Source: Spirochaetales bacterium (GTDB lineage: Bacteria > Spirochaetota > Spirochaetia > Sphaerochaetales > Sphaerochaetaceae). From it: 64,000 nucleotides of DNA. Made by a program: the position numbers and the translations under genes. Every line of letters starts with the position of its first letter. Position 1 is the stretch's first letter. Below are positions 8,076 through 37,445 of the stretch, piece after piece. The stretch covers positions 12,414 through 76,413 of the forward strand of contig JAGABZ010000013.1 in the NCBI GenBank assembly GCA_017614375.1. The letters are read 5' to 3'. Under the pieces are notes generated by a model. It ran no database searches. It saw nothing but the letters and a program-made list of their open reading frames with translations, and was not told where the DNA came from.

Positions 8076-8142
8076 CTGATCTTACCGCTCAGTGCCGCCG
8101 GAGCCCGGAAACAGCTGGCAAAAACCCTCCTGAGGCAGGACT

Positions 8143-8270
8143 GAGTGTCCGAAAAACGGCTTGTGGCAGATTGTTTCGGATACCCTAGTGTCCGAAAAAC
8201 GACTTGAGACAGGTACTTTCGGATACCTGAGTGTCCGAAAAACGGCTTGAGACTGATTGTTTCGGATACT
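8143..8270. repeat. Three tandem ~44 bp units each containing an imperfect inverted repeat GT(G/A)TCCGAAA...TTTCGGATAC
   Basis: Read directly: 'gagtgtccgaaaaacggcttgtggcagattgtttcggatac' x3 with few substitutions, in convergent intergenic gap. Confidence 0.8.
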
Positions 8271-8272
8271 GC

Positions 8273-8800
8273 TCAGAATGTCAGTTTTGCCGCCAGCGAG
8301 AGACCGGAAGACCCATCTCCGGCGACAGTCGGAGTCATGGCAAACTGAACAGAACTGACCCCTAAGGCTTGTGATAGTTGCCTGTTGTACTCGTTGGTAT
8401 AGCTGATTGGCCTGAATATTTCGTAAAGGCGAAAAGCCAGTAACCCGATGATCCCCATGAGAGCGGTATCCGGGTTCCCGTTGGCGGCTCCCAAGATATA
8501 CACACTGACAGAAGACAACTCTCCCGCCAGCCCGATTAGACCGCCTTCGTTATCCCCCTCTGCAAAAGAACCAATTCCGCACCCCAGGAAAAAGTTCAGT
8601 AACAGCGGAACAGCGAGACCTTTCTGTTGGTTGTTGTAGTACATGATTTTTTGGGTGGTATCCATTCCGGCTACCGCACTTTTAAAGCCGATTATTTCGT
8701 TTTGGTCTTTCGGGCTGAGTTTGACCGCGAATGCTGTACCAGGCACAAGCAACAGGACCAAAAGAGTGGCTGTCAGTATTTTCTTCATAATCCCTCCCAT
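8273..8800 (-). CDS. hypothetical secreted/membrane protein
   Basis: Signal peptide 'MKKILTATLLVLLLVPGTAFA' followed by Gly-rich hydrophobic segments; lower GC than flanks. Confidence 0.5.
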   Translation of the reverse strand: MGGIMKKILTATLLVLLLVPGTAFAVKLSPKDQNEIIGFKSAVAGMDTTQKIMYYNNQQKGLAVPLLLNFFLGCGIGSFAEGDNEGGLIGLAGELSSVSVYILGAANGNPDTALMGIIGLLAFRLYEIFRPISYTNEYNRQLSQALGVSSVQFAMTPTVAGDGSSGLSLAAKLTF

Positions 8801-8866
8801 TCTCAGATCCTTTCTTACAAAGGACTCTGAACAGTGTAGTTTCGCGCAACATCAAAAAGGTCGCCT

Positions 8867-9601
8867 GTGAGGCGAGTTTTGGAATATAATTACTGCATGA
8901 CCAAGGAAGAATTCGCGCAGACAATAGAGCGGTTTCTGAATGACCGGCCAGGCAGGATTATTACCAGAAGGGTTGGATTCGGCCCCTTCAAAAGGAAGAT
9001 CCAGAAACGATTCTTCCTGTCCGACCTGACCCTAATCGGTTATCAGAGTTTCATTGAGAAAAACTATCAGGGCTTCGAAAAGCCCGAAGGCGTCCGCGGA
9101 GGGATTCCGACAGGCGGGCCCACCATTCTTCATCAAGCTATTGCTTCCGAAGATGACGAAAGCGCCACTCTGTATTCTCTTTCGGATAGCAAGAATCTGC
9201 ACAGCAGTATTGAAATACCGGAGGAAATTCGGAAAATCTTGACCCAGAGAGTGACTGGCGAAACCTTTTCCGACATGTTGATAAGACTCCAAAATGAACG
9301 AAGTATCAAAGCGCCTGACCTGTACCGGAGTGCAAGGATTGACTACAGGCATTTCTCAAAAATCATTTCGGACAGGCAGTATCGCCCCCGGAAAGATACG
9401 GTATTTGCCCTGGGGTTGGCACTGAGACTCGACATCGACACCGCTGAGAAGTTCCTTGCCAGAGCCGGGTATTCTTTCAATCCGTCAAGTCTGGCCGACA
9501 TGACCATCCGGTTCTTTTTCGAGATACACAAATATGACAGGAACGCCATTGATACTTTGATGGAGGCCATGGGCTTACCATTACTCCCTCAGAACTGGTA
9601 G
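8867..9601 (+). CDS. hypothetical protein with XRE-like helix-turn-helix segment
   Basis: Central 'ETFSDMLIRLQNERSIKAPDLYRSARIDYRHFSKII' resembles XRE-family HTH; no other recognisable domain; true start may be Met at 8897. Confidence 0.4.
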   Translation: MRRVLEYNYCMTKEEFAQTIERFLNDRPGRIITRRVGFGPFKRKIQKRFFLSDLTLIGYQSFIEKNYQGFEKPEGVRGGIPTGGPTILHQAIASEDDESATLYSLSDSKNLHSSIEIPEEIRKILTQRVTGETFSDMLIRLQNERSIKAPDLYRSARIDYRHFSKIISDRQYRPRKDTVFALGLALRLDIDTAEKFLARAGYSFNPSSLADMTIRFFFEIHKYDRNAIDTLMEAMGLPLLPQNW

Positions 9602-9706
9602 CAGCTGCCTCTACGAAGGTTGACACCGGTCAATCCGCCGTTTATTATTCAGATGCAAAAGCGGCCACCCGAAGCGGTTGTCCTGCCTTTTGCCGTTGGT
9701 TTTCGA

Positions 9707-9752
9707 AACCGCCGGTACTGGTCAAGTTAGCGGCGGTTTTCTTTTTTCTTTC
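9707..9752 (+). terminator. rho-independent terminator-like hairpin
   Basis: 'aaccgccg'-16 nt loop-'cggcggtt' followed by ttcttttttctttcg. Confidence 0.5.
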
Positions 9753-9828
9753 GAATCCAAATCATCAGCACAAGCCGGACAATCTCATTAATATTTGTAT
9801 AGTAATCTCTGCCTGATATCGCTCCCTC

Positions 9829-10326
9829 TTACCGCTTGCGGAAGAGGACGAACTTTTCCAGGGGGAACAGGGTCAGGGTGTAGACAGCGCCGGCGAACAA
9901 CACCGCCAAAGTCGGGGCGAGCTTGATCAGAAAGGCGCTGCCTGAGTTGATGAAGAAGTTGTTGAGCACACCCTGAACCCAGGTGACCACGAAAATCAGG
10001 ATTACAAGGACGACAAGGTAGACTACAAAGCACCACTTCGGGGCCTCGACCTTGAACGTGGTTTTCTTGTTCTGGATGTACTGATAGGTGTTGGCAACCA
10101 GATTCGAGGTGAAAAAAGGCACAACGTAGCCCCAGTTGCTGTTGCCGCTGCCCATCGTGGTCTCGCTGAATATACCGCTCAGAACCGCCGGAAGCGGGGC
10201 AGTCCAACCGCGCATCAGATAGTATAGGACGTTGACGACAACCAGCTGGATAACGCAGCCGATGCCGCCGACCAGCAGGAACTTTACAAACTGCCAGCCC
10301 GTCCTGTTTTCCTTTGTCTCAGACAT
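9829..10326 (-). CDS. GtrA family membrane protein
   Basis: 'FVKFLLVGGIGCVIQLVVVNVLYY' GtrA-type N-terminus, 4 predicted TM helices. Confidence 0.55.
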   Translation of the reverse strand: MSETKENRTGWQFVKFLLVGGIGCVIQLVVVNVLYYLMRGWTAPLPAVLSGIFSETTMGSGNSNWGYVVPFFTSNLVANTYQYIQNKKTTFKVEAPKWCFVVYLVVLVILIFVVTWVQGVLNNFFINSGSAFLIKLAPTLAVLFAGAVYTLTLFPLEKFVLFRKR

Positions 10327-10338
10327 CCCGAAGCCTTC

Positions 10339-11133
10339 TTACTCCCCTTTCGCGACGGCGGCACTGCCTCTTTTGCGCGTCACGAGCCGATAGACCAGCC
10401 AGTCGACACCCAGCAGCAGAAGCACCGCGGCAACCAGAACCGCCCCGGTAAGCCAGATTGAGTCGGGCAGGAAGTCGAGCATGGCGAAGTTGCCGTGCTT
10501 GAGGTAGAGATAGTGGGCGTCTTCATACTTTCCGTTGAAATAGATGCAGGGAACTGCCAGCAGGAACAGAAAGCCCAGGACCATGAGGATCCCGTACGGG
10601 CGGGGTTCGTACTGATGGACGAACATCATGTAGTATACCCCGATGATCGGCAGCAGGTGCTCGCCCCAGTACTGGTAGTAGCGGTAGTACGTCGGCGGCA
10701 TGGCCGAGATGACGGCGGGGAACAGAATCGGCAGCAGCCCGGCGCTCATGGTCAGAAAAAAGCAGAGCGAGAACAGTTTCTTCGACTCACGCATCATCAT
10801 GAACACGGTGGTGATCAGGGTCCACTGGCAGACCTGCAGAGGCAGAAAGCCCATCATCGTCTTGTCCGGGTCGGTGCCGGGACCGACATAAACCAGGCGC
10901 CAGAAGTATGACATCTCGCAGAGAATCATGATAAAGGCGAAGATGAACCTCAGGTCCTTTTCGTATTTCCAGTTGCGGATTTTGTCTTTAAAACGCCACA
11001 CGAGCACGATCAGCCCTACGGCGACCAGAACCGGCAAGAAATGGGCCGGCGTCCACTGTTTGAACTCACCCAGAGTACCGTAACCGAAAAAACCTGATTT
11101 GAAGTAAATCACTTCACGGGCAATCCCATCCAT
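10339..11133 (-). CDS. YwaF/TIGR02206-like integral membrane protein
   Basis: 264 aa polytopic protein; overall similarity to the YwaF/TMEM164-like intramembrane family by pattern recognition only. Confidence 0.45.
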   Translation of the reverse strand: MDGIAREVIYFKSGFFGYGTLGEFKQWTPAHFLPVLVAVGLIVLVWRFKDKIRNWKYEKDLRFIFAFIMILCEMSYFWRLVYVGPGTDPDKTMMGFLPLQVCQWTLITTVFMMMRESKKLFSLCFFLTMSAGLLPILFPAVISAMPPTYYRYYQYWGEHLLPIIGVYYMMFVHQYEPRPYGILMVLGFLFLLAVPCIYFNGKYEDAHYLYLKHGNFAMLDFLPDSIWLTGAVLVAAVLLLLGVDWLVYRLVTRKRGSAAVAKGE

Positions 11134-11234
11134 ACATCTCCCCTTCGGCCTGTTAAGACCGGACTTATTATTACGCTGCGGGTGGTTTTGGACAAGCCCT
11201 TACCGACTGCCGCCTATGGTGTTATAATTCCACC

Positions 11235-12341
11235 ATGACTTTCGGACTTTACATTCTTTGGGCAGGATGTGTGCTGTGCGCCTTCTGCATCGTGAACCTG
11301 GTCCAGCTCCCGCTCCGCCGGGGCCGTCACCCGGTTCTGACACCGATTCTCATGGCGGTCAAGTTCCTGCTGTCCGTCATCGCCGCACTGATGGAAATCG
11401 CACTGGATACCTGGCTCAGCTGGCACGCGGGCTTCGTCCTGGGGGCCCTGCACATCGCCCTTTTCGCCGATGCCACGGCCGATTTAGTCCTGCTCATCCC
11501 GCTGTACAGGAAAAAACAGCCGCTGGGCAGGAAACTGTTCATCATCGTTTCCCTGGTGCTGACAGTCGCCCTGGCCCTGTACGGGACACTGAACATGCAG
11601 GCCACCGCCCGGGCAAACGAGCACACCTACACCTCGGAGAAGCTGACGAAAGAGCACACCTTCGCCTTCCTCTCCGACCTCCATGTCGGCACGGCCCAGA
11701 GCCCCTCGACAATTGAGCGGAACCTGAAGGCAATCAAGGACAGCAACCCCGACTTCATAGTCCTCGGAGGCGACATCACCGACGAGTTCACCAAAAAAGA
11801 GGAGATGCAGGACATCTACAGACAGCTCGGCGCCCTGGGCATCCCGGTGTACTTCGTCTACGGCAACCACGACAGGCAGGCCCACAACGACCTGGCCGGG
11901 GGCAGACAGTACACCCCGGAGGACCTCGAGCAGGCCCTGGAGGCAAACGGCATCATCATCCTCAAAGATCGCTGGGTCAGGATTTCGGACGACCTGGTCC
12001 TGCTCGGAAGGGAGGATGTAACCGTCGATACCAGATTGGAGGTGTCGCAGCTTCAGAGCAGACCTGAGGGCACCTATGTAGTCAGCGTCGACCACGCCCC
12101 GTTCCAGCTGCAGGACATCATCGATACCAAGGCCGATTTGCAGATGTCCGGCCACACCCACGCCGGGCAGATGTTCCCGCTTCAGGCGATGTACAACCTC
12201 CTCGGGTACGATGCCCTGGGTGACTTCCGCTACGGGGACACCACGGTCTGCGTCTCGGCGGGAATCTCAGGCTGGGGCATCCCCTACCGGACCGAATCGA
12301 ACTGTGTTTACGAACTGGTTCATCTGGTTCCTGCCAGATAA
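11235..12341 (+). CDS. membrane-anchored metallophosphoesterase (calcineurin-like)
   Basis: N-terminal TM helices then 'FLSDLHVG', 'GGDITD', 'GNHD', 'GHTH' phosphoesterase motifs. Confidence 0.8.
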   Translation: MTFGLYILWAGCVLCAFCIVNLVQLPLRRGRHPVLTPILMAVKFLLSVIAALMEIALDTWLSWHAGFVLGALHIALFADATADLVLLIPLYRKKQPLGRKLFIIVSLVLTVALALYGTLNMQATARANEHTYTSEKLTKEHTFAFLSDLHVGTAQSPSTIERNLKAIKDSNPDFIVLGGDITDEFTKKEEMQDIYRQLGALGIPVYFVYGNHDRQAHNDLAGGRQYTPEDLEQALEANGIIILKDRWVRISDDLVLLGREDVTVDTRLEVSQLQSRPEGTYVVSVDHAPFQLQDIIDTKADLQMSGHTHAGQMFPLQAMYNLLGYDALGDFRYGDTTVCVSAGISGWGIPYRTESNCVYELVHLVPAR

Positions 12342-12362
12342 AGGCAAAAGAGAGGCCAAACC

Positions 12363-12929
12363 ATGACGGCGTCTGTGATAATCAACTTCATAATCGTTCT
12401 GGGGACCCTGGTGATCTTCTTCGGCGCCCTGGCAAAGAAACTGTTCGGAACCGCCATCCGGTACTTCACCGTCCAGTCGAACTTCCTCTGCGGCGCGGTC
12501 TGCCTGCTTGCCGCCCTCTACGGACTGAAAGGGGAAATCCCGTTCTGGGTCTCGACGCTCAAGTACATCGGCACCTGCGCCGTCACCGTCACCTTCGTCA
12601 CCGTATTCGCGTACCTGGGACCGCGCTTTCACAACTGGGACGTGCTCCTGCGCGACGGAAACCTTTGGATGCACCTCTTCTGTCCGGTTCTGGCCATCGT
12701 TTCCTATCTTTGCTGGGACCGGGTTCCGGCGCCCTTTCCCTACGTCTTTCTGGGAATCCTGCCGATGATACTCTACGGAATCCTGTACTTCTGGAAGGTG
12801 GTCATGGAAAAACCGGAGAAGCGCTGGGACGACCTGTACGGCTTCCAGAACGGCGTGAACTGGAAGACCAGCGCCGCGGCGATGCTCACTCTGGATTTCG
12901 TGCTGAGCCTGGTTTTGTGGGTTCTGTAA
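12363..12929 (+). CDS. Pr6Pr/FAR-17a-AIG1-like six-TM membrane protein
   Basis: 'RYFTVQSN' motif and 6 hydrophobic segments; assignment by motif memory only. Confidence 0.4.
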   Translation: MTASVIINFIIVLGTLVIFFGALAKKLFGTAIRYFTVQSNFLCGAVCLLAALYGLKGEIPFWVSTLKYIGTCAVTVTFVTVFAYLGPRFHNWDVLLRDGNLWMHLFCPVLAIVSYLCWDRVPAPFPYVFLGILPMILYGILYFWKVVMEKPEKRWDDLYGFQNGVNWKTSAAAMLTLDFVLSLVLWVL

Positions 12930-12953
12930 AGCCTTGACCTGAAACCGGAGAAA

Positions 12954-13727
12954 CTACTCCCGGTTCAGGCACCTGTACTTCAGCGGGCTGCCGTCGTTGT
13001 TGTTCCGCCTGAGTTCATAGCGGGTCGGGAAGGCCTCCAGCAGCGTCGAGAGCTTTGAGAAACCGTAGGTGCGGGTGTCGAAATCCGGCTTGGCCCGCTT
13101 GATGTAGTTGCCGGCCAGGCTGACGTCGGCCAGAGCGTTGTCGTCCTGGTAGGAGTCAAAGGCCTTGACCAGAAGGGCGTGGACGTCCTTGGGCACCTTG
13201 GGTTTCTTGACGGGGGCTTTCTTTTCGGCTTCCTTCTGGGCGCTCTTGCTGTCGCCCCGCTCCTGCGCCTCCGGGATTTCCGGCGGTTCGTCATTGGTCA
13301 GGTTTTCCAGGAACAGGAAGTCGTCGCAGGCGTTGCGGAAGGACTCCGGTGTGTTCTGGACTCCGATGCCGACAATCTTGGCCCCCGACTCGCGGAGCCT
13401 GATGGCCAGCGGGGTGAAGTCGCTGTCGCTTGAGACGATGACGAAGCTGTCGTAGGAGTCGGAAGAGAGCAGGTCCATCGCGTCTATGACCAGGGCCATG
13501 TCGGTGGCGTTCTTTCCCGGGACGTAGTCGAACTGCTGCTCCGCCTTTATTCCGAGCCGCTTGAGCTCCTCCTCCCACTTGCTGAGGTTCCGCTTCTTCC
13601 AGTTCCCGTAGGCTCTCTTGACGACGATGCGTCCGCGGGTCGAGACCTCGGTGATTATCGCGTCCAGCTTCTGCAGCTGGGTATTGTCCGCGTCGATGAG
13701 AATTGCAATCTTGTCTGAATCGTTCAT
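12954..13727 (-). CDS. NYN (LabA-like) domain protein with C-terminal OST-HTH/LOTUS domain
   Basis: 'IAILIDADN...RAYGNW...DMALVIDAMDL...FVIVSSDSDFTPL' NYN motifs; Lys-rich linker; C-terminal OST-HTH-like ~70 aa. Confidence 0.75.
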   Translation of the reverse strand: MNDSDKIAILIDADNTQLQKLDAIITEVSTRGRIVVKRAYGNWKKRNLSKWEEELKRLGIKAEQQFDYVPGKNATDMALVIDAMDLLSSDSYDSFVIVSSDSDFTPLAIRLRESGAKIVGIGVQNTPESFRNACDDFLFLENLTNDEPPEIPEAQERGDSKSAQKEAEKKAPVKKPKVPKDVHALLVKAFDSYQDDNALADVSLAGNYIKRAKPDFDTRTYGFSKLSTLLEAFPTRYELRRNNNDGSPLKYRCLNRE

Positions 13728-13833
13728 GGTTCAATGATAGCAACAATCCGCCGTTTGGCAAACGCCCCGGGTCGCAAACCGGTTGATAATCCGGCATTTT
13801 GCCGTCAGAATGGACGCAGTTTACGGAGACACC

Positions 13834-16776
13834 ATGCAATACACCCTCAGGCCCGACCTGTTCAGCGACTTTTCCGTCATAAAGGTCAATGCGCTGCCCG
13901 GACGCAGCTACTTCATCCCCTATCCGCTTTCAGCCCGACCCGAAACAATCCCCGCCACACAGCGCAGATACCGTTCCCCTCTGGTGCGGTGCCTCAACGG
14001 GAAATGGGATTTCAGGTACTTCGCCGACCCGAACGCCCTGGGGCAGACGATCGACACCGACAGGATGATGTTCGGGAGCATCGACGTTCCTTCGGTCTGG
14101 CAGTACCGCGGATACGGCACTCCGATGTATCTCAACGTCCGGTATCCTTTCCCCTACAAACCGCCCGTCATTCCGACGGACCGGCCGGTCGGCAGGTACT
14201 TCTCCATCCTAGACGGTTTCAAAAGGGCCCCGGACAACGAGATGAACAGCACGGGTGTGTACCGGACCTTCTTCGACCTGGAGGAAACGGCCGACAAGCG
14301 GATTGTGATTTCCTTTCTCGGAGTCTGCAGCTGCGTCGAGCTCCACGTGAACGGACAGTTTGCCGGATACAGCGAGGAGTCGCACAACACGGCCGAATTC
14401 GACCTGACCGACCTGGTGCAACCCGGCAGAAACGAGATGGTCTGCGTCGTGCGCCGCTGGTGTAACGGCTCGTATCTGGAATGTCAGGACATGTTCCGCA
14501 ACAATGGCATTTTCCGAGATGTTCTACTCAGAATCACAGACAAAGATGATATCTGGGACATCGATTTCAAGACAAAGAAAGAGAACGGCCGCTACACTGC
14601 AACCATCACGGCGACCGTTGCCGACGGAGTACCCGTCCGGTTCTCGATTAATGGCCACGGCCTGAATCAAAGCACCGAGGTCATCTCCTCCGGCGGCAGG
14701 GCCGAAGCGGTCTTTGAGGATTTGTGCGTCCGGGAGTGGAACGCGGAACAACCCGAACTCTATCTGCTTGGCATCTGCAGTCCCCGGTCGCAGACGGTGC
14801 TGAAAGTCGGGTTCAAGGATGTGCGCATCGACGGCACCCGTTTCACCCTCAACGGTTTCCCGCTGAAGTTCAAAGGGGTCAACCACCACGACACCGACCC
14901 GGACAACGGCTGGTACATGAGCCCGGAGCAGATCCAAAGAGACCTGCGGCTGTGCAAGGAGTACAACATCGACACAATCCGGACCTCGCACTACCCGCCC
15001 GATCCGCTTCTGATCGAGCTGGCCGCCGAGATGGGAATCTACATCATCGACGAGGCCGACATCGAGACCCACGGGGTGCTCTACGGCAAACTCCCGCCCT
15101 CGTTCAACCGGCTGTCGGACAACCCCGGCTGGAAGGAGCACTATCTAAGCCGGATCTGCAACATGTATCAGCGGGACAAGGCCCTGGCCACCCCGGTGGT
15201 GATGTGGAGTCTGGGCAACGAGAGCGGCGCCGGCTGCAACACGGACGCGGCGTACAACTGGCTCAAGGGCGTTTCAGACCTCCCCGTGCACTACGAAGGT
15301 GCGGTCCACTCAAAGCGCAAGGCCTACGATGTGGCCTCGCGCATGTACCCGAAGCCCTCGGAACTTCATGCCGTCAGCAATAATACATGCAAAACCCCGC
15401 AGTTCCAGGACCGCCCGTACTTCATGTGCGAATACGCCCACGCCATGGGAACCGGACCGGGGAACATCGAAGCCTATTGGAATGAAATCTACAACAGCGA
15501 GAACCTCATCGGCGGCTGTGTCTGGGAGATGAACGACCATGCCTTCAGGGAAAAGGACGGGCAGTTTACCTATGGCGGCGACCACGGGGAGTGGATTCAC
15601 GACGGAAACTTCTGCTGCGACGGCCTCTTTTATCCGGACCGCAGGCCGTCTACAGGGGCTCAGATAGTCAGACACGCCTACCGCCCGATCCGGATCCGGC
15701 GGCTTGAGGCCGACAGGTTCACGGTATTCAACACCACCGCCTTTACCCCGGGAAAGGATTTTCTGCTCAAGATCAAAGTCTCCAACGGCCGAAGCTTCGA
15801 TTTCGTACCGCAGGCCGGGCCGCTGGAAACACAATTTGTCCGGTGGGACATCGGCCCTGTCGAGGGGGACTGTTTCCTGACAGCCGAGATCCTGGGCAAA
15901 GACGGGCGCAGCCTGGGAACCGAGCAGATCTGTCTGCACGGGCAGATTCCTTCCGCCCCGCAGACAACCGGGGTATTCCCGCCGTGGGCGGTATGCTGTG
16001 CCGGATTCAACGGGCGTTTCGGAATCAGCACCGGGCGCGGCACCGTTCTTTCCCCAGAAGATCCGTTCACCATTCTCTACAGGGCGGAAACCGACAATGA
16101 CAGCATCAATTTCACCCTCAGGCCGATGCGCAGGTGGTACAAAAACGAAGAGAAGATCATAGCCGGCCAAAATGAGGGCGAAGGCAGAACGGTAATCACC
16201 GAAATCAGGACGGCCGGACGCCTTTTCACATGCAGGGACACTTACCAGGCCTGCATTCTTCCCGACGGCACAAAGGGAATACTGATTACATCGGTGCTCC
16301 ACCCCCACAGCAAAAGGGGATTCATTCCGAGGTTCGGAAAGGTCTTCAGGCTGAGCGAAGACTGTTTCAGCGAGGTGGAATACTTCGGCAGAAGCGGAGA
16401 ATCCTATCCCGATATGAAGGAGCAGTTCCCGATCGGGCTCTGCAGGGTGAAACCTGCGGAGATGGTTGAGCCGAACATCCGTCCGCAGGAGAGCGGACTG
16501 AGGATGGACTGCCGCTGGGCTGCCTTCGGGCCGGTGCGTTTTACGGCAGTGGACGCCCCGTTCGGGCTGTCGGTCAAGACTTGCCCGGACAGCGAACTGA
16601 TCGGGACACGACACCGGGACGACGTGAAGAAAAGCGGGGTGTACGTGACGATAAACGCCTTTCAGCAGGGAATCGGAACTGGAAGCTGCGGGCCGTATGT
16701 GGACCGGCAATACATGTACCCGGCCGACCGGGACTACACGCTGCGCTTTGTAATCAGTCTGGACAGGGAGCAATAG
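13834..16776 (+). CDS. lacZ: GH2 beta-galactosidase (LacZ-like)
   Basis: ~980 aa; LacZ-like N-terminus 'RPDLF...SLNGKWDFRYF'; acid/base 'WSLGNESG' and nucleophile region 'MCEYAHAMGTGPG'; ATG 13834 (ORF track allows 13783). Confidence 0.9.
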   Translation: MQYTLRPDLFSDFSVIKVNALPGRSYFIPYPLSARPETIPATQRRYRSPLVRCLNGKWDFRYFADPNALGQTIDTDRMMFGSIDVPSVWQYRGYGTPMYLNVRYPFPYKPPVIPTDRPVGRYFSILDGFKRAPDNEMNSTGVYRTFFDLEETADKRIVISFLGVCSCVELHVNGQFAGYSEESHNTAEFDLTDLVQPGRNEMVCVVRRWCNGSYLECQDMFRNNGIFRDVLLRITDKDDIWDIDFKTKKENGRYTATITATVADGVPVRFSINGHGLNQSTEVISSGGRAEAVFEDLCVREWNAEQPELYLLGICSPRSQTVLKVGFKDVRIDGTRFTLNGFPLKFKGVNHHDTDPDNGWYMSPEQIQRDLRLCKEYNIDTIRTSHYPPDPLLIELAAEMGIYIIDEADIETHGVLYGKLPPSFNRLSDNPGWKEHYLSRICNMYQRDKALATPVVMWSLGNESGAGCNTDAAYNWLKGVSDLPVHYEGAVHSKRKAYDVASRMYPKPSELHAVSNNTCKTPQFQDRPYFMCEYAHAMGTGPGNIEAYWNEIYNSENLIGGCVWEMNDHAFREKDGQFTYGGDHGEWIHDGNFCCDGLFYPDRRPSTGAQIVRHAYRPIRIRRLEADRFTVFNTTAFTPGKDFLLKIKVSNGRSFDFVPQAGPLETQFVRWDIGPVEGDCFLTAEILGKDGRSLGTEQICLHGQIPSAPQTTGVFPPWAVCCAGFNGRFGISTGRGTVLSPEDPFTILYRAETDNDSINFTLRPMRRWYKNEEKIIAGQNEGEGRTVITEIRTAGRLFTCRDTYQACILPDGTKGILITSVLHPHSKRGFIPRFGKVFRLSEDCFSEVEYFGRSGESYPDMKEQFPIGLCRVKPAEMVEPNIRPQESGLRMDCRWAAFGPVRFTAVDAPFGLSVKTCPDSELIGTRHRDDVKKSGVYVTINAFQQGIGTGSCGPYVDRQYMYPADRDYTLRFVISLDREQ

Positions 16777-30434: not shown

Positions 30435-31139
30435 CTATTTGCGCTTGGTGACCTTGCAGAGCCGGTTGCGCTCGGCCAGGACGACGAGGATCCTGTTGCA
30501 GAAATCGGCCGTAACCTCTTCGTTCTCGACAACGGCGCTCTGCAGGTCCGCCACCATGGATTCCAGGGTTTTCTCGACATCGGCTGTGGCGTCCGAACTG
30601 ACCGGGTCGCTGTATCTGAACTCCTCCGACACCCGCCGCAACAGCTCGTTCGTCTCCGGATCCTTGGCAAATCCCACCAGGGAATTGACCTTTGAGCGCA
30701 ACCCGATGATGCACTGGGTCTGGCTGGACAGGATGTCGTCCTGCCGCTCAATCTCGGACCTGACGATATCGACAGTGATGAATCCGATGGCGCAGAGGCA
30801 CAGCAGTACTGCAAAGACCGCCAGCGGAATCCACAGCGGCACCGTTTGGGGCAGGAGCATCGTGACGATGCTCAGCACAACCTGCGCAATCAGATAGACG
30901 GTTCCGAGTTTCGCGACTGGAATCCCGTAGAACCGGCTGCGCGGCGCCCCCTCCCTGCCGAAGGCGTTGAGTATGGCCAGCAGATGCAGCACCAGCGCGG
31001 CGACGGCAAACACGTAGGCCAGCCAGAAGTTCGCGCCCCGGCTGAACGGCAGCACGAGGACGATTACGGAAAACACAATCGCCGCCAGAATATAGGCGAT
31101 GACGATCTTTACCAGAACACTCTTTTTCTTTTCAGTCAT
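30435..31139 (-). CDS. hypothetical membrane protein (4 TM + helical cytoplasmic tail)
   Basis: Four hydrophobic helices then charged alpha-helical C-terminus; last gene of the TIR/SPFH cluster. Confidence 0.5.
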   Translation of the reverse strand: MTEKKKSVLVKIVIAYILAAIVFSVIVLVLPFSRGANFWLAYVFAVAALVLHLLAILNAFGREGAPRSRFYGIPVAKLGTVYLIAQVVLSIVTMLLPQTVPLWIPLAVFAVLLCLCAIGFITVDIVRSEIERQDDILSSQTQCIIGLRSKVNSLVGFAKDPETNELLRRVSEEFRYSDPVSSDATADVEKTLESMVADLQSAVVENEEVTADFCNRILVVLAERNRLCKVTKRK

Positions 31140-31168: not shown

Positions 31169-32863
31169 TCACTCCGCGTCGGGTCTCCTGGCGCCGCAGT
31201 CGGGACAATGCTTTGATGTCAGTCCCCTGGCTCCGCAGGCACAGTCCCATGTGCCTGCCGGCTCGGGCCGGGCGGCTCCGCAATCCGGGCAGAATTTACT
31301 TGTCAGCCCCCTCCGGCCGCAGGAACAGCTCCATGTGTTTCCGGCCGGCTTGTTCTTTGCCGGGCTCATGGCTCTGTCAAGTACAGGTTCAAGAACTTCC
31401 CTGGTAGTCTGGGCTACGGTACTCGCCACACCCAGACCGAATCCGGCTTCGATGACCTTTTCGGCAATGCTGCTGCCGCCGCCGCTCGAGCCGCCGCCTC
31501 CGTTGGCTTTCTTCATCATTTCGGTTGCCACGATACGACCCGTCTCATCCTGATAGGTGTAACCTCCCATGATCCTTCCCTCGGCTTCGGCATAATGATG
31601 GAGCAGTTCCGACGTCGCCTCACCCTGGGATTTGATAACGCTGGCATCCCTGTCCCCTGTGGCCTCAATGATTTTGGTTTCCTTATTGATTTCCGCCACT
31701 TTCTTATCCGTATCCGCCTCTACGGTCTTTAAGAATCTGCTTGCAAACAAATTCTTGGCAGCCTTGAAGTTGGGATCATCATCGGGAAGCATGACATTCT
31801 GGACGATGAACTCGGGGATGGAAAGCCCGTACTCCGCGAACTTCGCATTCAGCTTTTCCCTCAGAGCTTCGGACAACTCCATCAGATAGCGGTCAATCGC
31901 CATTACGGGGATCTTGTTATCCGTTATCGTCTGGGCCAGGCTGGACTTTACCTGGGCGCGGACCAGGGAGCCGAAATACGACCTGCCTTCTTCGCCTGTG
32001 ATATCGCCCCGGCCGAAGGTTCTGCCGGTCCCGACAACCTTGGTCAGCAGTTTCCGGGAGTTGCTCACGCAGACTTTGAACTCGCCCCGGGCGCCGATTT
32101 CAAAATACATTCCCGTGTCCGGGTCGAACAGTCTGACTCTGGAGTCGGTTCCCCACTTGACCCCTTCGATGACCGACAGATTGACGAAGTACACTTCCGA
32201 ATGGAAAACCCCGGTCGGTTCGGTGGGGAAGTCCAGGGCCTTGCCCAAAAGCGGGAGCTTCTGCGTTTCCAGGGTGTACCGCCCCGGTCCGAAGGTGTCC
32301 AGGGCCTGTCCGTCACGGAAAAAGACCGCCTCCTGGGACTCATGGACAATCAGCTGCGAGCCGTAGTTGAAGTCCTCGATCGGGTGCTTCCAGACTATGG
32401 AGCCGATGTCGCCCTCGTACTTGATCAGATTCGGCACGCCGCTCTTTTTGATTTCATCCTGGACGACCTTTGCCTGGACGTTTTCCATCACATGGGAGCA
32501 GACCGGGCAGGTGAAGGACTGTGCGCCCTTGTCCACCAGGAACCGGATTCCGCACTGGTCACATGCAATCTCGACGTTTTTGATCTTGTCTTCGGTCCTG
32601 TTGATCGGATGCTTGCACAGCGGGCAGAGGGCGGCGTCCCCCTTGGTGCGGTCGTAGACGACGATGTTCCCGCAGTGCGGGCACTCCTGGGAAACGAGTT
32701 TTGACTGTCTGATGTCAATCTTGTTTCCGCAGGCGCATTCGACAATCTTCTTTGCGAAGATGCCTCTTCTGGCCTGGACATAACTGCCGCACTCCGGGCA
32801 GCTGATCATGAAAATCTTATCGTTCTTTTCCATCGCGGACACCTCCCCGTCACTCGACTTCAA
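31169..32863 (-). CDS. SPFH/band-7 (Band_7_1-type) domain protein with multiple N- and C-terminal zinc-ribbon motifs
   Basis: Five or more CxxC..CxxC pairs ('CPECG..CACG', 'CPHCG..CPLC', 'CDQCG..CPVC', C-terminal 'CSCG..CPDCG' x2), central SPFH-like core, Gly/Ser linker. Confidence 0.75.
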   Translation of the reverse strand: MKSSDGEVSAMEKNDKIFMISCPECGSYVQARRGIFAKKIVECACGNKIDIRQSKLVSQECPHCGNIVVYDRTKGDAALCPLCKHPINRTEDKIKNVEIACDQCGIRFLVDKGAQSFTCPVCSHVMENVQAKVVQDEIKKSGVPNLIKYEGDIGSIVWKHPIEDFNYGSQLIVHESQEAVFFRDGQALDTFGPGRYTLETQKLPLLGKALDFPTEPTGVFHSEVYFVNLSVIEGVKWGTDSRVRLFDPDTGMYFEIGARGEFKVCVSNSRKLLTKVVGTGRTFGRGDITGEEGRSYFGSLVRAQVKSSLAQTITDNKIPVMAIDRYLMELSEALREKLNAKFAEYGLSIPEFIVQNVMLPDDDPNFKAAKNLFASRFLKTVEADTDKKVAEINKETKIIEATGDRDASVIKSQGEATSELLHHYAEAEGRIMGGYTYQDETGRIVATEMMKKANGGGGSSGGGSSIAEKVIEAGFGLGVASTVAQTTREVLEPVLDRAMSPAKNKPAGNTWSCSCGRRGLTSKFCPDCGAARPEPAGTWDCACGARGLTSKHCPDCGARRPDAE

Positions 32864-33035
32864 CGTTCTTCAAGGCAAACTCAAGCAGGATCTGGACGAT
32901 CTCATTGCGGGTCCTGGCGGAATCATTGGCAATGCGATCGATTTCCTCAAGCATATCCTTGGGGAGTCTGCTTGTGATAACCACCGATTCATCACGGTAC
33001 TTTTTGGATTCGATTTTAAGCTTCACATCTTCCAT
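32850..33035 (-). CDS. ribbon-helix-helix (CopG/Arc-like) DNA-binding protein
   Basis: 61 aa; 'VVITSRLPKDMLEEIDRIA' beta-strand + helix pattern; stop overlaps SPFH start by 14 nt; AGGAG RBS. Confidence 0.6.
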   Translation of the reverse strand: MEDVKLKIESKKYRDESVVITSRLPKDMLEEIDRIANDSARTRNEIVQILLEFALKNVEVE

Positions 33036-33113: not shown

Positions 33114-35876
33114 TCAGTCCGGGTTCTGCTCCTCTTCTTTCCGGCGGGCCAGCCTGTCGGAAAGAACCGTGGACATCCCCTCAACTCCCTCAAATGCCTG
33201 AAGGGAGGCATAGTGCCCGGCCTGTTGCCAGAGCTGATGAATCTCCTCGTCAATCTTGTCCCTCCTGTCAAAAAGTCGCTTCAATTCGTCTTCCTTGCCG
33301 GCAAGTTCCTTGTCCGCAGCTTCAAAGTTTTCCCTGCACTTTCTAATCGGTCCGCCCAGACAGAGGGAAAGAAGGACTATAACCGGAGGCCCGCAAATCA
33401 AAGTGTCCATCAGGTGGAAATTCTTTGTGTTTTCATTCAACCCTCCGACAAAGAGCAGTACAAGTGCAACCGGGGCAAAAACCCACAGAAACGGGCGTTC
33501 CTTTTTTATGCCGACAATCACGCCGGCAATCATCACTGCGAGCCAGAAGAGGTAGAAAGGTCCGTCATCGAACACCGCCTCGTGGGACGCGTACGAGCCG
33601 AACCACAGCCACAGCAACGGAGGTATTGCAAGCAACACCCCGATCAGAGTCAAAACGAACTGCTTTCTGTTCCTGGTCTTTGCCAAAGCCTCCCGTTGTT
33701 TGCCGTACCCCGCAAACGGATGCATGCTGATCTGTTTCCGGATGGGAACCTTCTCCATGGCCTTTGCGCAGATTTCCACCCATAAATGACTGCCGTTGTA
33801 GTCTTTCAGTTCCTGGAAAATCTCAGAGGCAGCCTGATACTCAGTGTCGTCATACTTCTTTCTGGCCTCCTGAAACCTCTGCTCAAGCTTTGCCTTCTGA
33901 CAGTTTTCTATCCAGCGGTCCGAACCCTTGTATTGCTCTTTTTGCAGTTGTCTGAAGATTACCAGAGCCCGGTCAAAGTCTCCGTTGTCGTACAGGCCTT
34001 TCGCCTCTTTGAATTTCTCCTCAAGCATCCTGTCGCGGTCGGCCTCAATATCGCCGCGGACCGCTTCAAGCTCGGAGCGCACCCGGTCAAACTCCTCCGA
34101 TGCGTCCTTGTAATCGGTAACCATCCCGAAGAGAAAGACTGCCACTGCGAGGCTTGCTTCCTTCGCCTTCGGATCAGATTGACTCAAGGCATTATCCCTG
34201 CTCTCCGATGCGGCGTTGTATATTGCTTCGCAGCAGTTCTCTTGCAGGGCATCGTTTCCGAAGCGCTTTGTACATGCCGAAACGAATTTCTCCGCACTGC
34301 GCATCTGTGGCTTCAAGTCCTCAAGGAAGTCGGATTCGGGATTATCGACCGCTCTCTTCAGAAGCCTTGAATAACAGAACTCCGCGTATTGATTTGCCAG
34401 GCGTTCGGAATCGGCATTGACAGTCTCCAGGAGTTCTGCTCTCTCGTCCAGTTTTTCCGGCAGTTGCTCAATCTTCGCGATAACCTCGTCAAAATCAGCC
34501 ATGAACTCATCAAAAGTCACGGCAAACAACGGCTGGTCCTTCGTAATCCGCGCACCGGAGCGTTTGACAGCCTGCTCGTGAAGACTCATGCACTGGGCAC
34601 AGTGCCTGCTCAAAACCCGCTTCAGAACCGACCGGAGGTAGCCGGTAATCTCTTCTTTGAGTTCGGGCGAAGCGTAGCGCTGGATTTTCTTCAGATACTT
34701 GTTGTTGTCAAAGGCCGCAGAGGAATCGAGATTTCCGAGGTCCTCCCGGTGGTGCAGCCCGAGGGAGGCCAGCCACTGTCCGAGATAGGCTTCGGCGTTT
34801 TCAGGATCCATGTCCAGAATCCGGTCGCTGTATTCGACGGCCTTGTCGAACTCCCCGTCTTCGAGGAACTGGAACATCCTCTTGTGCAAGCCTGCGATTT
34901 CCGGCCTCATGAATGAGGAGCCGGCCCGGGCGGGTTCCTCTCTTTTGCCGCCGGCGCCGCGGACGATTGTCTTCACCCCGTACACCAGATTCTGCAGGTA
35001 CCCCAGGGCGGACATATCAACTGCCTGGAGCTTGAGGCCGCTCGGAGACTCCTGAAGCTCCCTGGGTATATCCATCAGGTCGATGTCCGCGTACGCCGTC
35101 ATCAGGACCTTTGACGGGTCATCAGCCATCAGACGCTTGAACCGGGACCACTCGTTCTTGACCCAGGGGGCGTTGAAATACACCTGCTCGGTCCCCACCA
35201 CTATCATCACCTTTGCTGTCTGCAGAGCGCCGAAAATGTAGGGCTCATACTCAATCCCGGGCTTGTTCTTCAGCGTCACCTTGGAAAAGAAGACTCTCAG
35301 TCCTTCCTTTTCAAGGGCATTGTAGATATCGAAGGCATAAACGCTGTCCTTCGTCTTGGCTTTTGTCTTGTCATCGGTTTCCTTGTAGCAGATGAAGACA
35401 TCATAAGGTTCGGTATTCCGGGAAACCATGAGGATGTTTTTCTGCATCTCGTCAATCCGGGCCGCTTCTTCCTCGTAGAACTCCCGCTGCCGGGCATCTG
35501 CGTATTCCAGGGCCGAGAGGTAATCCTCATCCTCGAGTATCGAGGACTGCTGTGTTCTGTGGACAGTAGGAACAAGGCGCTTTGTCTCGCGGTTTTCCAC
35601 ATACTCTATGCCGTATCTGCAGAGCACTATGGACCAGTAGCTTTCGGCGTCGGTGCTGTCCTCCGCAAGTACCTGCTCGTACAGGCTCATGGCACGGTCG
35701 AAATCATTGTTCCGCCGGAAGTGGTCCGCCCGTTTGTAGAGGTTCTGTTTCTTGTCCGAATCCAGTCTGGGTACGGTCTGTTCAGTACCGCAGTACGGAC
35801 ACTTCGCCACAAGAGAGCCTTCCTCAACCAGAAGATTCGCTCCACAATTCTTACACATCCGGCTGTTCGTCAACAT
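33114..35876 (-). CDS. TIR-domain protein with N-terminal zinc ribbon, TPR-like helical repeats, four TM helices and C-terminal coiled coil
   Basis: 'CKNCG...CPYCG' ribbon; TIR core 'YDVFICYKETDDKTK...DIYNALEKEGLRVFF...VMIVVGTEQ...WVKNEWSRF'; hydrophobic helices near residues 730-830; lower GC than flanks. Confidence 0.8.
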   Translation of the reverse strand: MLTNSRMCKNCGANLLVEEGSLVAKCPYCGTEQTVPRLDSDKKQNLYKRADHFRRNNDFDRAMSLYEQVLAEDSTDAESYWSIVLCRYGIEYVENRETKRLVPTVHRTQQSSILEDEDYLSALEYADARQREFYEEEAARIDEMQKNILMVSRNTEPYDVFICYKETDDKTKAKTKDSVYAFDIYNALEKEGLRVFFSKVTLKNKPGIEYEPYIFGALQTAKVMIVVGTEQVYFNAPWVKNEWSRFKRLMADDPSKVLMTAYADIDLMDIPRELQESPSGLKLQAVDMSALGYLQNLVYGVKTIVRGAGGKREEPARAGSSFMRPEIAGLHKRMFQFLEDGEFDKAVEYSDRILDMDPENAEAYLGQWLASLGLHHREDLGNLDSSAAFDNNKYLKKIQRYASPELKEEITGYLRSVLKRVLSRHCAQCMSLHEQAVKRSGARITKDQPLFAVTFDEFMADFDEVIAKIEQLPEKLDERAELLETVNADSERLANQYAEFCYSRLLKRAVDNPESDFLEDLKPQMRSAEKFVSACTKRFGNDALQENCCEAIYNAASESRDNALSQSDPKAKEASLAVAVFLFGMVTDYKDASEEFDRVRSELEAVRGDIEADRDRMLEEKFKEAKGLYDNGDFDRALVIFRQLQKEQYKGSDRWIENCQKAKLEQRFQEARKKYDDTEYQAASEIFQELKDYNGSHLWVEICAKAMEKVPIRKQISMHPFAGYGKQREALAKTRNRKQFVLTLIGVLLAIPPLLWLWFGSYASHEAVFDDGPFYLFWLAVMIAGVIVGIKKERPFLWVFAPVALVLLFVGGLNENTKNFHLMDTLICGPPVIVLLSLCLGGPIRKCRENFEAADKELAGKEDELKRLFDRRDKIDEEIHQLWQQAGHYASLQAFEGVEGMSTVLSDRLARRKEEEQNPD

Positions 35877-35933
35877 CAATGCCCCTTCCGGAACCGAAGA
35901 CCGCCCGGGTTCCGGCAGCTCTCCAGCCTCGCA

Positions 35934-36040: not shown

Positions 36041-36562
36041 TCAGGTGGTCTCGAACTGGATGTAAATTGTGGCGGTGTACTCTTCGTCCTCATCCTCGCC
36101 GAAACCCTCGGGCCGGCCGAAGGGGAAGCAGACGTAGATTCCACCGAGAAGGGCGTTGGGAGAATCGCTGATCAGATTCAGTATGTTCAGGCCCGAGGTC
36201 TGCTGGATTCCTGAAACGAGTCCTTCGTGGTTGTAGGAAATAATCGCAATCTCAAAGGGATAGACAGCATCCGAATTCTTCGCCCGCAGCAGGAAAACCG
36301 CGTCTCCGTTTCCGGGGACAATCGAAAGCTTCGCCGAAGAATTTGTGCTGTTTTCGGAGAGGTTGAAAGTCGCAAGGGCGAACTGTTTGCCTTCTACGTT
36401 CTTGAGAGCCAACCCGCTCTGGTCGGACTCTACGACGGAGAAGTCCATCTTGGCGTTGACCCTTCCGGAAACCGAGATTTCAACGGTGTTGGAGGTCAGA
36501 TCATCAGCGTACAGTGACAGCGCCGAAACCAGGACCAGAATCATCACCAGGAGCTTCTTCAT
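36041..36562 (-). CDS. hypothetical secreted protein
   Basis: Signal peptide 'MKKLLVMILVLVSALSLYA'; no recognisable domain; lower GC. Confidence 0.5.
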   Translation of the reverse strand: MKKLLVMILVLVSALSLYADDLTSNTVEISVSGRVNAKMDFSVVESDQSGLALKNVEGKQFALATFNLSENSTNSSAKLSIVPGNGDAVFLLRAKNSDAVYPFEIAIISYNHEGLVSGIQQTSGLNILNLISDSPNALLGGIYVCFPFGRPEGFGEDEDEEYTATIYIQFETT

Positions 36563-36750
36563 AACAGACACATCCTCTTCCAATGCCGATTCTAGAGGAA
36601 CTTCAAACTTCTGTCAATAGTTTGAATTGCCCGTTGTTTTTTTCGGCCGGTTTTTGACCCCAAAACCATCTAAATGCCTCTGTTTGCGAAATTTGCGCTT
36701 ATGTCATAATTGCCTCTGCCCACCCCGCTTCCTCCTATCTTCCCGCTTCC

Positions 36751-36788: not shown

Positions 36789-36862
36789 GGGTGCGTAGCG
36801 AAGTTGGATATCGCGTGTCCCTCCGGAGGATAAGGTCGTGGGTTCGAATCCCGCCGCACTCA
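36789..36862 (+). tRNA. tRNA-Arg (anticodon CCG)
   Basis: Hand-folded cloverleaf: acceptor gggtgcg/cgcactc, D-arm gcga/tcgc, anticodon stem tgtcc/ggata with loop 'ctCCGga', T-arm gtggg-ttcgaat-cccgc, discriminator A; CCA not encoded. Confidence 0.85.
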
Positions 36863-36905: not shown

Positions 36906-36926
36906 TCGGAACGCCAGGGATTCGAA

Positions 36927-37445
36927 GCGAGACGGGAGAATCCCACCGGCACCTGAATCGCAGCAGGCATTGACCCAAATGGTGTTTTTTTTTCAAATCG
37001 CACGAAAAACCACCTCGAAAATGGTGGTTTTTTTTCAAATCTTGAGGAAAACCACCACGAAATTGGTGGTTTTTTTGAAAACTCGGGAAAAACCACCAAT
37101 GAGTAATAGGGAAGAGACCAATCGGCAACGGGGATGGGTCAGGCCTTGCCCGGAATTGTAGAGATAGTCCAGCTTTTTCGGGGAAGGCCGGACCGGCTTC
37201 AGCAGAGATGATTAGACTCAGCGAGACGGGAGAATCCCGCCGACCACTGAATCGCAGCAGGCATTAACTCAAGTGGTGGTTTTTGTCAAATCGCACGAAA
37301 ATCCACCTCGGAAATGGTGGATTTTTTCAAATCGTGAGGAAAACCACCACGAAATTGGTGGATTTTTTGAAAACTCGGGAAAAACCACCAAAGAGCAACA
37401 GGGAGGAGACTGATCGGCAACGGGGATGGGTCAGCCGGGATATTA
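36927..37445. repeat. Two ~220 bp direct repeats (~90% identical, 78 bp apart), each starting with tRNA-3'-end-like sequence and containing three hairpin + T-tract sub-repeats
   Basis: Copy 1 36927-37142, copy 2 37221-37445; sub-repeat 'caaatc..gaaaaaccacc-N7-ggtggttttttt' x3 per copy; both end 'ggcaacggggatgggtcag'. Confidence 0.85.

Follow-up and report, generated by a model that had tools for sequence, protein, structure and literature searches.

Relationship to described TIR and SPFH systems

To our knowledge, the bacterial TIR proteins characterized so far are soluble sensors or effectors. Enzymatic TIR domains, as in SARM1, the plant TIRs, and AbTir, are activated by oligomerization. 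In this study, we analyzed a stretch of 64,000 nts from a Spirochaetales bacterium (assembly GCA_017614375.1, contig JAGABZ010000013.1, positions 12,414 to 76,413; hereafter the window), whose minus strand carries a TIR-family gene (33114..35879). Its product joins a zinc ribbon, tetratricopeptide repeat (TPR)-like helices, and a TIR domain to four predicted transmembrane (TM) helices, and the gene clusters with genes for a ribbon-helix-helix (RHH) protein, a soluble SPFH protein, and a second protein with four TM helices (4TM protein). We tentatively favor the view that this product is a TIR enzyme tethered to the inner membrane, acting with an SPFH scaffold in a defense or membrane-stress module.

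Enzymatic TIRs (SARM1/TIR-1, L6/L7, RPP1, Roq1, AbTir, TIR-SAVED, and the TIR-APAZ protein of SPARTA) share only 12-18% sequence identity with the TIR domain of the window, whose protein differs from them in lacking a SAM, NB-ARC, SAVED, or APAZ partner domain and in being a predicted integral membrane protein. The locus resembles Thoeris and Rst_2TM_1TM_TIR in combining a TIR gene with partner genes, some of them for membrane proteins, and one related locus (L027) encodes a ThsA-like SIR2 protein. However, PADLOC gave no match to ThsB or ThsA for the window proteins, Pfam scans of the neighboring proteins revealed no SIR2 or Macro domain, and the window contains no ThsA-type effector. Other known defense systems with TM-associated TIRs (Rst_2TM_1TM_TIR, Pycsar/CBASS) likewise had no relevant match in PADLOC-DB v2, and the locus is neither Thoeris nor any other TIR defense system already catalogued.

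Among systems built around SPFH proteins, the closest is PspA-YdjGHI (SamGHI) of Bacillus subtilis, in which two integral membrane proteins, YdjG and YdjH, bring the SPFH protein YdjI, which is soluble and carries a zinc finger at its C-terminus, to the membrane (PMC8581546). The Bacillus operon has no TIR genes, whereas in the window no PspA/IM30 domain was found among the neighbors, the 4TM protein shows no YdjG/YdjH-type domain and no detectable similarity to known domains, and the SPFH protein carries extra N-terminal zinc ribbons. With PspA and YdjG/YdjH-type domains lacking, the locus is not a PspA-YdjGHI operon. What is shared is a soluble, zinc-finger SPFH protein of the Band_7_1 family, to which we take YdjI to belong.

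A third comparison concerns animal Toll-like receptors (TLRs). Clostridial relatives of the window protein share with TLRs a variable ectodomain, including leucine-rich repeats (LRR), a single TM helix, and a TIR domain in the cytoplasm; they differ in having the TIR domain at the N-terminus (type II, reversed polarity), additional zinc-ribbon and TPR parts, and BspA-type LRR. With four TM helices, no ectodomain, and an N-terminal TIR domain, the window protein departs further from the TLR layout, and common descent of the architecture as a whole is not implied. What is apparently new here is the orphan anchor of four TM helices plus tail in a spirochaete, the very large uncharacterized family of membrane TIR proteins to which the protein belongs, and an apparently undescribed partnership with SPFH and 4TM proteins.

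Domain organization of the TIR protein

The TIR gene is a single unbroken open reading frame (ORF) in the ORF list, comprising 921 aa when read from the TTG at 35879 and ending with the stop codon at 33114-33116. The likely start is the ATG at 35876, which directly follows the TTG codon, is preceded 5 nt upstream by the ribosome-binding-site-like sequence GGAAGGGG, and yields 920 aa. Residues are numbered below from the TTG, and all gene and domain coordinates refer to the minus strand unless stated otherwise. A homologue at NCBI (MBO4388713.1), from a metagenome-assembled genome (MAG) named 'Spirochaetales bacterium' and located on a 401-kb contig that also carries the neighboring genes, has already been annotated as 'TIR domain-containing protein'. 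Thus, the protein is present in databases under a generic name and is not a new kind of molecule.

At the N-terminus, a Cys4 zinc ribbon (CKNC...CPYC, residues 9-30; 35790..35855) is indicated by conservation, by an AlphaFold2 (AF2) model with beta strands at 24-26 and 33-35, and by weak matches to Pfam zinc-ribbon families. An alignment of 67 homologues shows no variation at C12, C27, or C30, with C9 conserved in at least 90% of the sequences. It is followed by the first TPR-like helical hairpins (residues 42-88; 35616..35756), which are covered at 47-83 by Pfam TPR_14, TPR_16, and TPR_7 and modeled as helices 42-56, 60-73, and 78-88 with pLDDT values of 85-95. The TIR domain occupies residues 158-308 (34956..35408). 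A second TPR block (residues 326-373; 34761..34904), with a Pfam TPR_19 match at 339-367 (E=1.2e-9) and pLDDT values of 95-97, ends the conserved N-terminal module (about residues 1-420).

Much further downstream, two TPR-like repeats (residues 620-710; 33750..34022; pLDDT 92-96) are of the 'G-x-F/Y-D-x-A...F..L..YKGS/YNGS...C' type and align with 'YKDS' repeats that stand after the TM helix in homologues. In the window protein they precede the membrane segment and are therefore predicted to be intracellular, unlike those of the relatives. The four predicted TM helices (residues 739-846; 33342..33665) were delimited by Kyte-Doolittle hydropathy and loop charges, and a charged helical C-terminal tail (residues 847-921; 33117..33341), defined by a heptad test and the AF2 model, is predicted to be cytoplasmic.

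A preliminary description of this DNA had proposed this very order of zinc ribbon, TPR-like helices, TIR domain, four TM helices, and charged helical tail, and Pfam, alignment, AF2, and hydropathy bear it out. The sequence motifs it quoted are all present (YDVFICYKETDD at 159-170, KVMIVVGTEQ at 223-232, and WVKNEWSRF at 239-247), as are its four hydrophobic stretches (741-760, 775-791, 797-814, and 827-845). It had also staked its reading on the presence of TM helices and of a TIR core with the conserved Glu; four hydropathy peaks were indeed found, and the Glu (E243) is invariant in the 67 homologues.

The TIR domain and its conserved glutamate

Pfam TIR_2 (PF13676), for which the curated cut-off is 28 bits, matches residues 161-267 with 43.6 bits (E=4.9e-11). 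Besides the box 1 residues D160, F162, C164, Y165, and K166 (DVFICYK), V240, N242, E243, and W244 are invariant in the 67 family members. HMMER pairs WVKNEW with WCLMEL of flax L6/L7 and with WCQYEL of TLR15, and the alignment places E243, whose codon was checked (35151..35153), at the catalytic Glu position of NADase TIRs, in agreement with the W-x-x-x-E pattern. In L6 and SARM1, the Glu at this aligned position is the catalytic one.

A search with the full-length AF2 model in Foldseek returned generic TPR proteins only, and a model restricted to residues 140-320 (pLDDT 77.5) was used instead. This model matched the L7 TIR domain, SARM1, TIR-1, Roq1, RPP1, AbTir, TIR-STING, and SPARTA, so that, as modeled, the domain certainly has the flavodoxin-like TIR fold. 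The fold alone does not separate enzymes from adaptors, and the PDB sequence ranked first for the family TIR profile was the TIR domain of TLR15/TLR2 (E=6e-6). The most likely activity of the domain is NAD+ cleavage, whether to deplete NAD+ or to generate an ADP-ribose-derived signal.

The membrane segment and the C-terminal tail

With Kyte-Doolittle windows of 19 residues, the four segments peak at 2.24, 2.09, 2.26, and 2.06, whereas the first 700 residues all remain at or below 1.12. There are six Lys/Arg residues before helix 1; zero, three, and one in the three successive loops; and four after helix 4. This distribution obeys the positive-inside rule, and a topology with both termini inside the cell is thus predicted. 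The external loops are no longer than 14 residues, leaving no ectodomain. Within the tail, the a/d heptad pattern of residues 856-883 surpasses 498 of 500 shuffled sequences. The preliminary description had called the tail a coiled coil; the heptad pattern and the modeled helices speak for this, while pLDDT values below 50 speak against taking it as proven, and a short coiled coil at 856-883 is plausible.

The C-terminus formed by the four TM helices and the tail has no homologue outside this Spirochaetales lineage. An exhaustive phmmer search of residues 700-921 against 1.84 billion representative sequences gave only two matches, neither a true homologue: one was a repetitive hydrophobic protein and the other a coiled-coil protein, and both were discarded as artifacts. 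The representative of the 50% cluster of the TIR protein itself was not among these matches and presumably has another C-terminus. A word-index search with the same residues also found nothing and was discounted, since it missed a 95%-identical protein (P0001) that phmmer recovered at 1e-138; more generally, negative results of word-index searches with TM-rich or low-complexity queries need a positive control.

Several other candidate relationships were rejected. An origin of the C-terminus as a fused copy of the adjacent 4TM protein was ruled out by BLASTP (E≥0.1) and by hhalign (probability 0.2%). Sub-threshold matches to Pfam Acyl_transf_3 on the TM region, to a PADLOC Csx1/Csm6 model at residues 622-695 (E=0.0018), and, in a homologue, to Csm6_6H were taken as noise from hydrophobic sequence or helical repeats.

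A widespread family of membrane-anchored TIR proteins

A search of 5.8 billion proteins returned at least 7,907 significant homologous clusters, out of 8,000 candidates at which it was capped. Where the homologues are named, they are called 'TIR domain-containing protein' and come from MAGs of Clostridia, Lachnospiraceae, and Eubacteriales, mostly from gut or rumen. The best non-identical matches are 45-55% identical and cover only the first ~45% of the query, to about residue 420. Membrane segments were counted in the best 120 of these clusters, and a strongly hydrophobic segment was found in 115 of the 120, with exactly one in about 112, located at about residues 430-620. In the homologues scanned, this helix is preceded by a stretch rich in Lys/Arg and followed by the TPR-like 'YKDS' repeats, after which come DUF6273, BspA-type LRR (LRR_5), RCC1, RHS, or PASTA domains. 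PASTA domains are extracellular, and the other domain types are typical of extracellular proteins. The family plan read from these sequences is a constant, predicted cytoplasmic module of zinc ribbon, TPR, TIR, and TPR, followed by a membrane anchor and a variable outer part.

The window protein contains the same collinear module of ~420 aa with the Cys4 ribbon, box 1, and the Glu, but instead of one TM helix followed by an ectodomain it has its four helices at 739-846 and short external loops. The TIR region is very strongly conserved among the Clostridial members, to which the window protein is ~50% identical. By its sequence, it is a divergent family member. Its nearest counterparts form an unnamed Clostridial family (e.g., P0005, P0038, and P0108) that has all of the invariant residues, the downstream anchor, and the same operon; they often occur as two to four tandem paralogues, whereas the window protein is present in a single copy. 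The architecture had been described beforehand as unusual. This holds for the C-terminus of four TM helices plus tail, the lack of an ectodomain, and the spirochaete host; it does not hold for the zinc ribbon-TPR-TIR-TPR module with a downstream anchor, which recurs in at least 7,900 protein clusters.

Variation around this plan was seen in other loci (designated L001, L002, and so on). Tandem TIR arrays of two to four genes occur in L002, L003, L005, L007, L008, L010, L014, and L015; the 5' (N-terminal) part is constant among the paralogues, the 3' (C-terminal) part is not, and such an arrangement would permit the variable domains to be swapped by recombination. In three loci from uncultured Bacilli (L020, positions 7974-14556; L021; and L022), a TIR module of ~300 aa is followed directly by four to five TM helices, in one case with C-terminal SH3_3 domains. 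These loci also encode a short SPFH protein (~380 aa, double zinc ribbon) and a 4TM partner with an N-terminal extracellular extension of ~230 aa, and a large serine recombinase gene adjoins the cluster in L020 and L022. In the literature searched, neither the family nor the 4TM partner nor any link between TIR and SPFH proteins was described, which does not prove that no description exists; the family is also absent from a survey of TIR diversity.

Conserved operon partners

Directly downstream of the TIR gene, and in the same orientation, lie the RHH, SPFH, and 4TM genes. The RHH gene (CopG type, 61 aa; 32850..33035) matches Pfam RHH_1 with 22.4 bits against a cut-off of 20.5 and is a probable operon regulator; its homologues, with 44-59% identity, adjoin TIR genes in seven other loci. 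The SPFH gene (564 aa; 31169..32863) matches Pfam Band_7_1 with E=6.3e-41. Its listed TTG start overlaps the RHH gene, and the likely start is the ATG at 32833 (554 aa), which is also where the gene was called in L001. No TM segment was found in the SPFH protein, which is predicted to be soluble. It contains seven CxxC motifs, five of them at the N-terminus (about three zinc ribbons), together with a GGGGSSGGGSS linker and two further zinc ribbons at the C-terminal side. No match to this protein was found among PDB sequences.

The 4TM gene (234 aa; 30435..31139) encodes four TM helices with Kyte-Doolittle peaks of up to 3.2 and a predicted cytoplasmic helical tail. It has no match in Pfam, NCBIfam, or PADLOC. 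Its family has at least 162 members, every one of them annotated as hypothetical, and the motifs RYSDPVSS and ERNRLCK in the tail are invariant. We regard it as a candidate for a new domain family, one always found alongside Band_7_1.

The clustering of RHH, TIR, SPFH, and 4TM genes is conserved in independent loci. By tblastn against 24 related GTDB loci, the SPFH gene was detected in 15, the 4TM gene in 13, and the RHH gene in seven, in every case on the strand that carries the TIR paralogues, of which there are one to four in tandem. Genomic contexts chosen only for their long contigs gave the same picture: a Band_7_1 gene and an unannotated gene of ~230 aa stand alongside the TIR homologue in three of three, and a Band_7_1 gene lies immediately upstream of the 4TM homologue, with a TIR_2 gene in the cluster, in four of four. 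In L002, L014, and L020-22, the 4TM partner has a long, weakly LRR_5-like N-terminal extracellular extension, and in L020-22 and for one gene of L002 the TIR protein itself is multi-pass, one with C-terminal SH3_3 domains. The outer part may thus sit on either the 4TM or the TIR protein, which argues that both act in one membrane complex.

Genes in or beside related clusters match models for PDC-M03A (HipA-like), ThsA-type SIR2, and REase_II, and serine recombinase and conjugation genes are frequent nearby. In L027 (7258-12052), a SIR2_2 protein with weak similarity to ThsA-SIR2 (E=1.4e-6) is encoded between the 4TM and TIR genes, and the locus lies inside a conjugative element with MobL, a type IV secretion system coupling protein, and serine recombinases. 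The extra genes of this cluster and of those in L026 (6865-12484) and L032 (6088-11476) include a HipA_C kinase matching the candidate defense family PDC-M03A (E=5e-27) and an REase_II-like protein.

Sequence variation and origin of the spirochaete copy

An exact-sequence look-up placed the TIR protein in a 90% cluster of eight proteins. Nine alleles from several metagenomes all have an intact ORF without indels, and their lengths of 894-921 aa reflect differing start-codon calls. Variable columns are absent from residues 51-250, number six in the TM block of ~100 columns, and are most frequent in the tail. In a pairwise comparison with the L001 allele, residues 2-420 show 16 synonymous and one nonsynonymous difference (dN/dS 0.017), with eight and zero in the TIR domain (dN/dS 0). 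The corresponding counts are 23 and 37 in the middle region (dN/dS 0.41), two and four in the TM block (0.65), and five and ten in the tail (0.47). The N-terminal module is therefore under strong purifying selection.

No spirochaete was found among the 24 related GTDB loci, which belong to Acutalibacteraceae, Oscillospiraceae, Lachnospiraceae, Ruminococcus, Eubacterium, uncultured Bacilli, and one Odoribacteraceae. The G+C content at third codon positions (GC3) is 0.68 in the TIR gene, 0.60 in the RHH gene, and 0.73 in the SPFH gene, compared with 0.78-0.82 in the flanks. At a distance of 900 bp upstream of the TIR gene there is a tRNA-Arg(CCG) gene. Because the host belongs to Spirochaetales and the relatives to Clostridia and Bacilli, and in view of the lower GC3 and the nearby tRNA-Arg gene, the spirochaete copy was probably acquired horizontally from Clostridia long ago, its C-terminus being remodeled afterwards.

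Two further features were observed in the upstream region. Directly upstream of the TIR gene, a 180-aa protein (36041-36583; GC3 0.69) with an N-terminal signal-like hydrophobic segment has no family match and, among the loci fetched, recurs only in L001, which is from the same species. Beyond the tRNA-Arg(CCG) gene (36789-36862, plus strand) there is a tandem duplication of ~290 bp (36926-37142 and 37220-37434; 88-96% identical), rich in AAACCACC...GGTGGTTTTTT hairpins, for which Rfam gave only sub-threshold matches (P9 sRNA, with 25 bits where the gathering score is 43). Stacked bidirectional terminators are one possible explanation of this duplication beside the lower-GC TIR region; it could also be a pair of small RNAs or the scar of an old integration.

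Proposed function and alternative explanations

In the model that we tentatively favor, the N-terminal module would be the constant cytoplasmic business end of a TIR protein held in the inner membrane. The 4TM protein would anchor the zinc-ribbon SPFH protein, by analogy with YdjI, and the resulting assembly would organize or restrain the membrane TIR proteins. A trigger would then release or cluster the TIR modules and switch on NAD+ cleavage, leading to NAD+ depletion or to a nucleotide signal, and the outcome may be a response of the defense or abortive-infection type or one to membrane stress. Regulation of the operon would fall to the RHH protein. In the Clostridial relatives, the trigger may be engagement of the ectodomain; in the spirochaete copy, a lineage-specific bundle of four TM helices and a coiled-coil tail would have replaced the single TM helix and ectodomain, and the membrane state or the SPFH complex itself may serve as the trigger. 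The NADase activity, the physical interaction of the TIR protein with the SPFH and 4TM proteins, the trigger, and the biological role are elements of this model that we infer. The preliminary description had suggested sensing or effector action at the membrane; a role at the membrane gains support from the conserved operon, which also encodes a soluble SPFH protein and a 4TM protein, while sensing, signaling, or killing there is likewise conjectural.

Several observations weigh against this model. No defense model in PADLOC matches any of the five proteins of the operon region, and the genes flanking the cluster in the window are housekeeping genes. The conservation of the N-terminal module among Clostridial paralogues is atypical for fast-evolving defense sensors, and the TM and tail parts of the window protein evolve fast, possibly under relaxed constraint. 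The TIR family has no match among PLSDB plasmids or INPHARED phages and one in IMG/VR; it is not typically plasmid- or phage-borne. Moreover, the only characterized Band_7_1 relative acts in membrane-stress repair together with PspA and not in immunity (PMC8581546).

Some of these observations lend weight to a less likely, though serious, alternative, in which the cluster would be a module of membrane homeostasis or signaling and not of defense. The SPFH and 4TM proteins would form a stress platform like that of YdjI/SamI, and the TIR domain would act without lethality as a scaffold, an adaptor, or a local source of an NAD-derived signal, linking the state of the envelope, and in the Clostridial relatives also cell-wall or surface cues sensed through the ectodomain, to a physiological response. 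In addition to the housekeeping neighbors, the very strong conservation of the constant module, and the lack of a PADLOC match, this alternative draws on the SPFH protein, a soluble protein with zinc ribbons and a low-complexity linker that is encoded beside membrane partners, as YdjI is. The PASTA and SH3_3 ectodomains of some relatives are cell-wall-binding domain types, and the TIR fold is as near to adaptor TIRs as to enzymes. However, there is no PspA/IM30 gene and no YdjG/YdjH-type domain in the 4TM protein, and the simplest explanation for a Glu that is invariant at the catalytic position is that the domain is an enzyme. Tandem paralogues with swapped ectodomains, mobile-element contexts, and toxin- or defense-type cargo (SIR2, HipA-like, and REase-like) are also typical of conflict systems.

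A bolder extension, which we consider rather unlikely, is that the cluster belongs to a widespread, undescribed membrane-embedded TIR system that would form, in gut Clostridia, an 'outside-in' Toll-like array on an SPFH scaffold, with the spirochaete copy as a version without ectodomain. Its details are similarly doubtful: tandem paralogues would carry swappable ectodomains (LRR, RCC1, DUF6273, RHS, PASTA, and SH3), contact with a ligand or phage would trigger signaling by the TIR NADase, and the spirochaete protein would read the state of the membrane through its own bundle of four TM helices.

It is improbable that the spirochaete gene is a decaying or neo-functionalizing remnant of a Clostridial receptor gene transferred into a diderm spirochaete, whose C-terminal half has little or no function, so that the N-terminal module or the downstream genes alone would matter. 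Such a history could account for residues 700-921 having no homologue elsewhere, the original TM helix and ectodomain having been exchanged for fortuitous hydrophobic sequence, as well as for dN/dS values of 0.017 in the N-terminal module but 0.41-0.65 in the C-terminal half, for a tail that is the most variable part among the alleles, and for repeats that are extracellular in relatives and predicted to be cytoplasmic here. Against it, the ORF is intact and equally long, without indels, in all nine alleles, only six columns of the TM block vary, and the TM helices have near-ideal hydrophobicity with loop charges that fit the positive-inside rule. Multi-pass variants have also arisen independently in other lineages, pointing to a recurrent and presumably functional mode of anchoring. 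Finally, a host-interaction factor that interferes with animal TLR signaling in the manner of TcpB/TcpC, or a surface adhesin of gut bacteria, its TIR domain acting on host cells, would suit the gut and rumen distribution of the family, the animal TLR TIR as top PDB sequence match, and the adhesin-like LRR, RCC1, and RHS ectodomains of relatives, but is highly improbable given the lack of a signal peptide, a TIR domain kept inside by its position N-terminal to an anchor with a Lys/Arg-rich flank, the absence of an ectodomain from the window protein, and operon partners that are cytoplasmic or in the inner membrane.

If the model of a membrane-tethered TIR enzyme with an SPFH scaffold is true, the SPFH protein of this cluster would represent a second functional context for the poorly understood Band_7_1 proteins besides the recruitment of PspA. 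A family numbering many thousands of integral-membrane TIR proteins, their surface domains variable and their flotillin-like partner obligatory, would then constitute a membrane and surface branch of bacterial TIR biology, and an independent parallel, at the level of architecture, to the Toll-like receptors of animals. The spirochaete variant would be a natural 'ectodomain-deleted' version of such a protein, useful for separating anchoring from sensing.

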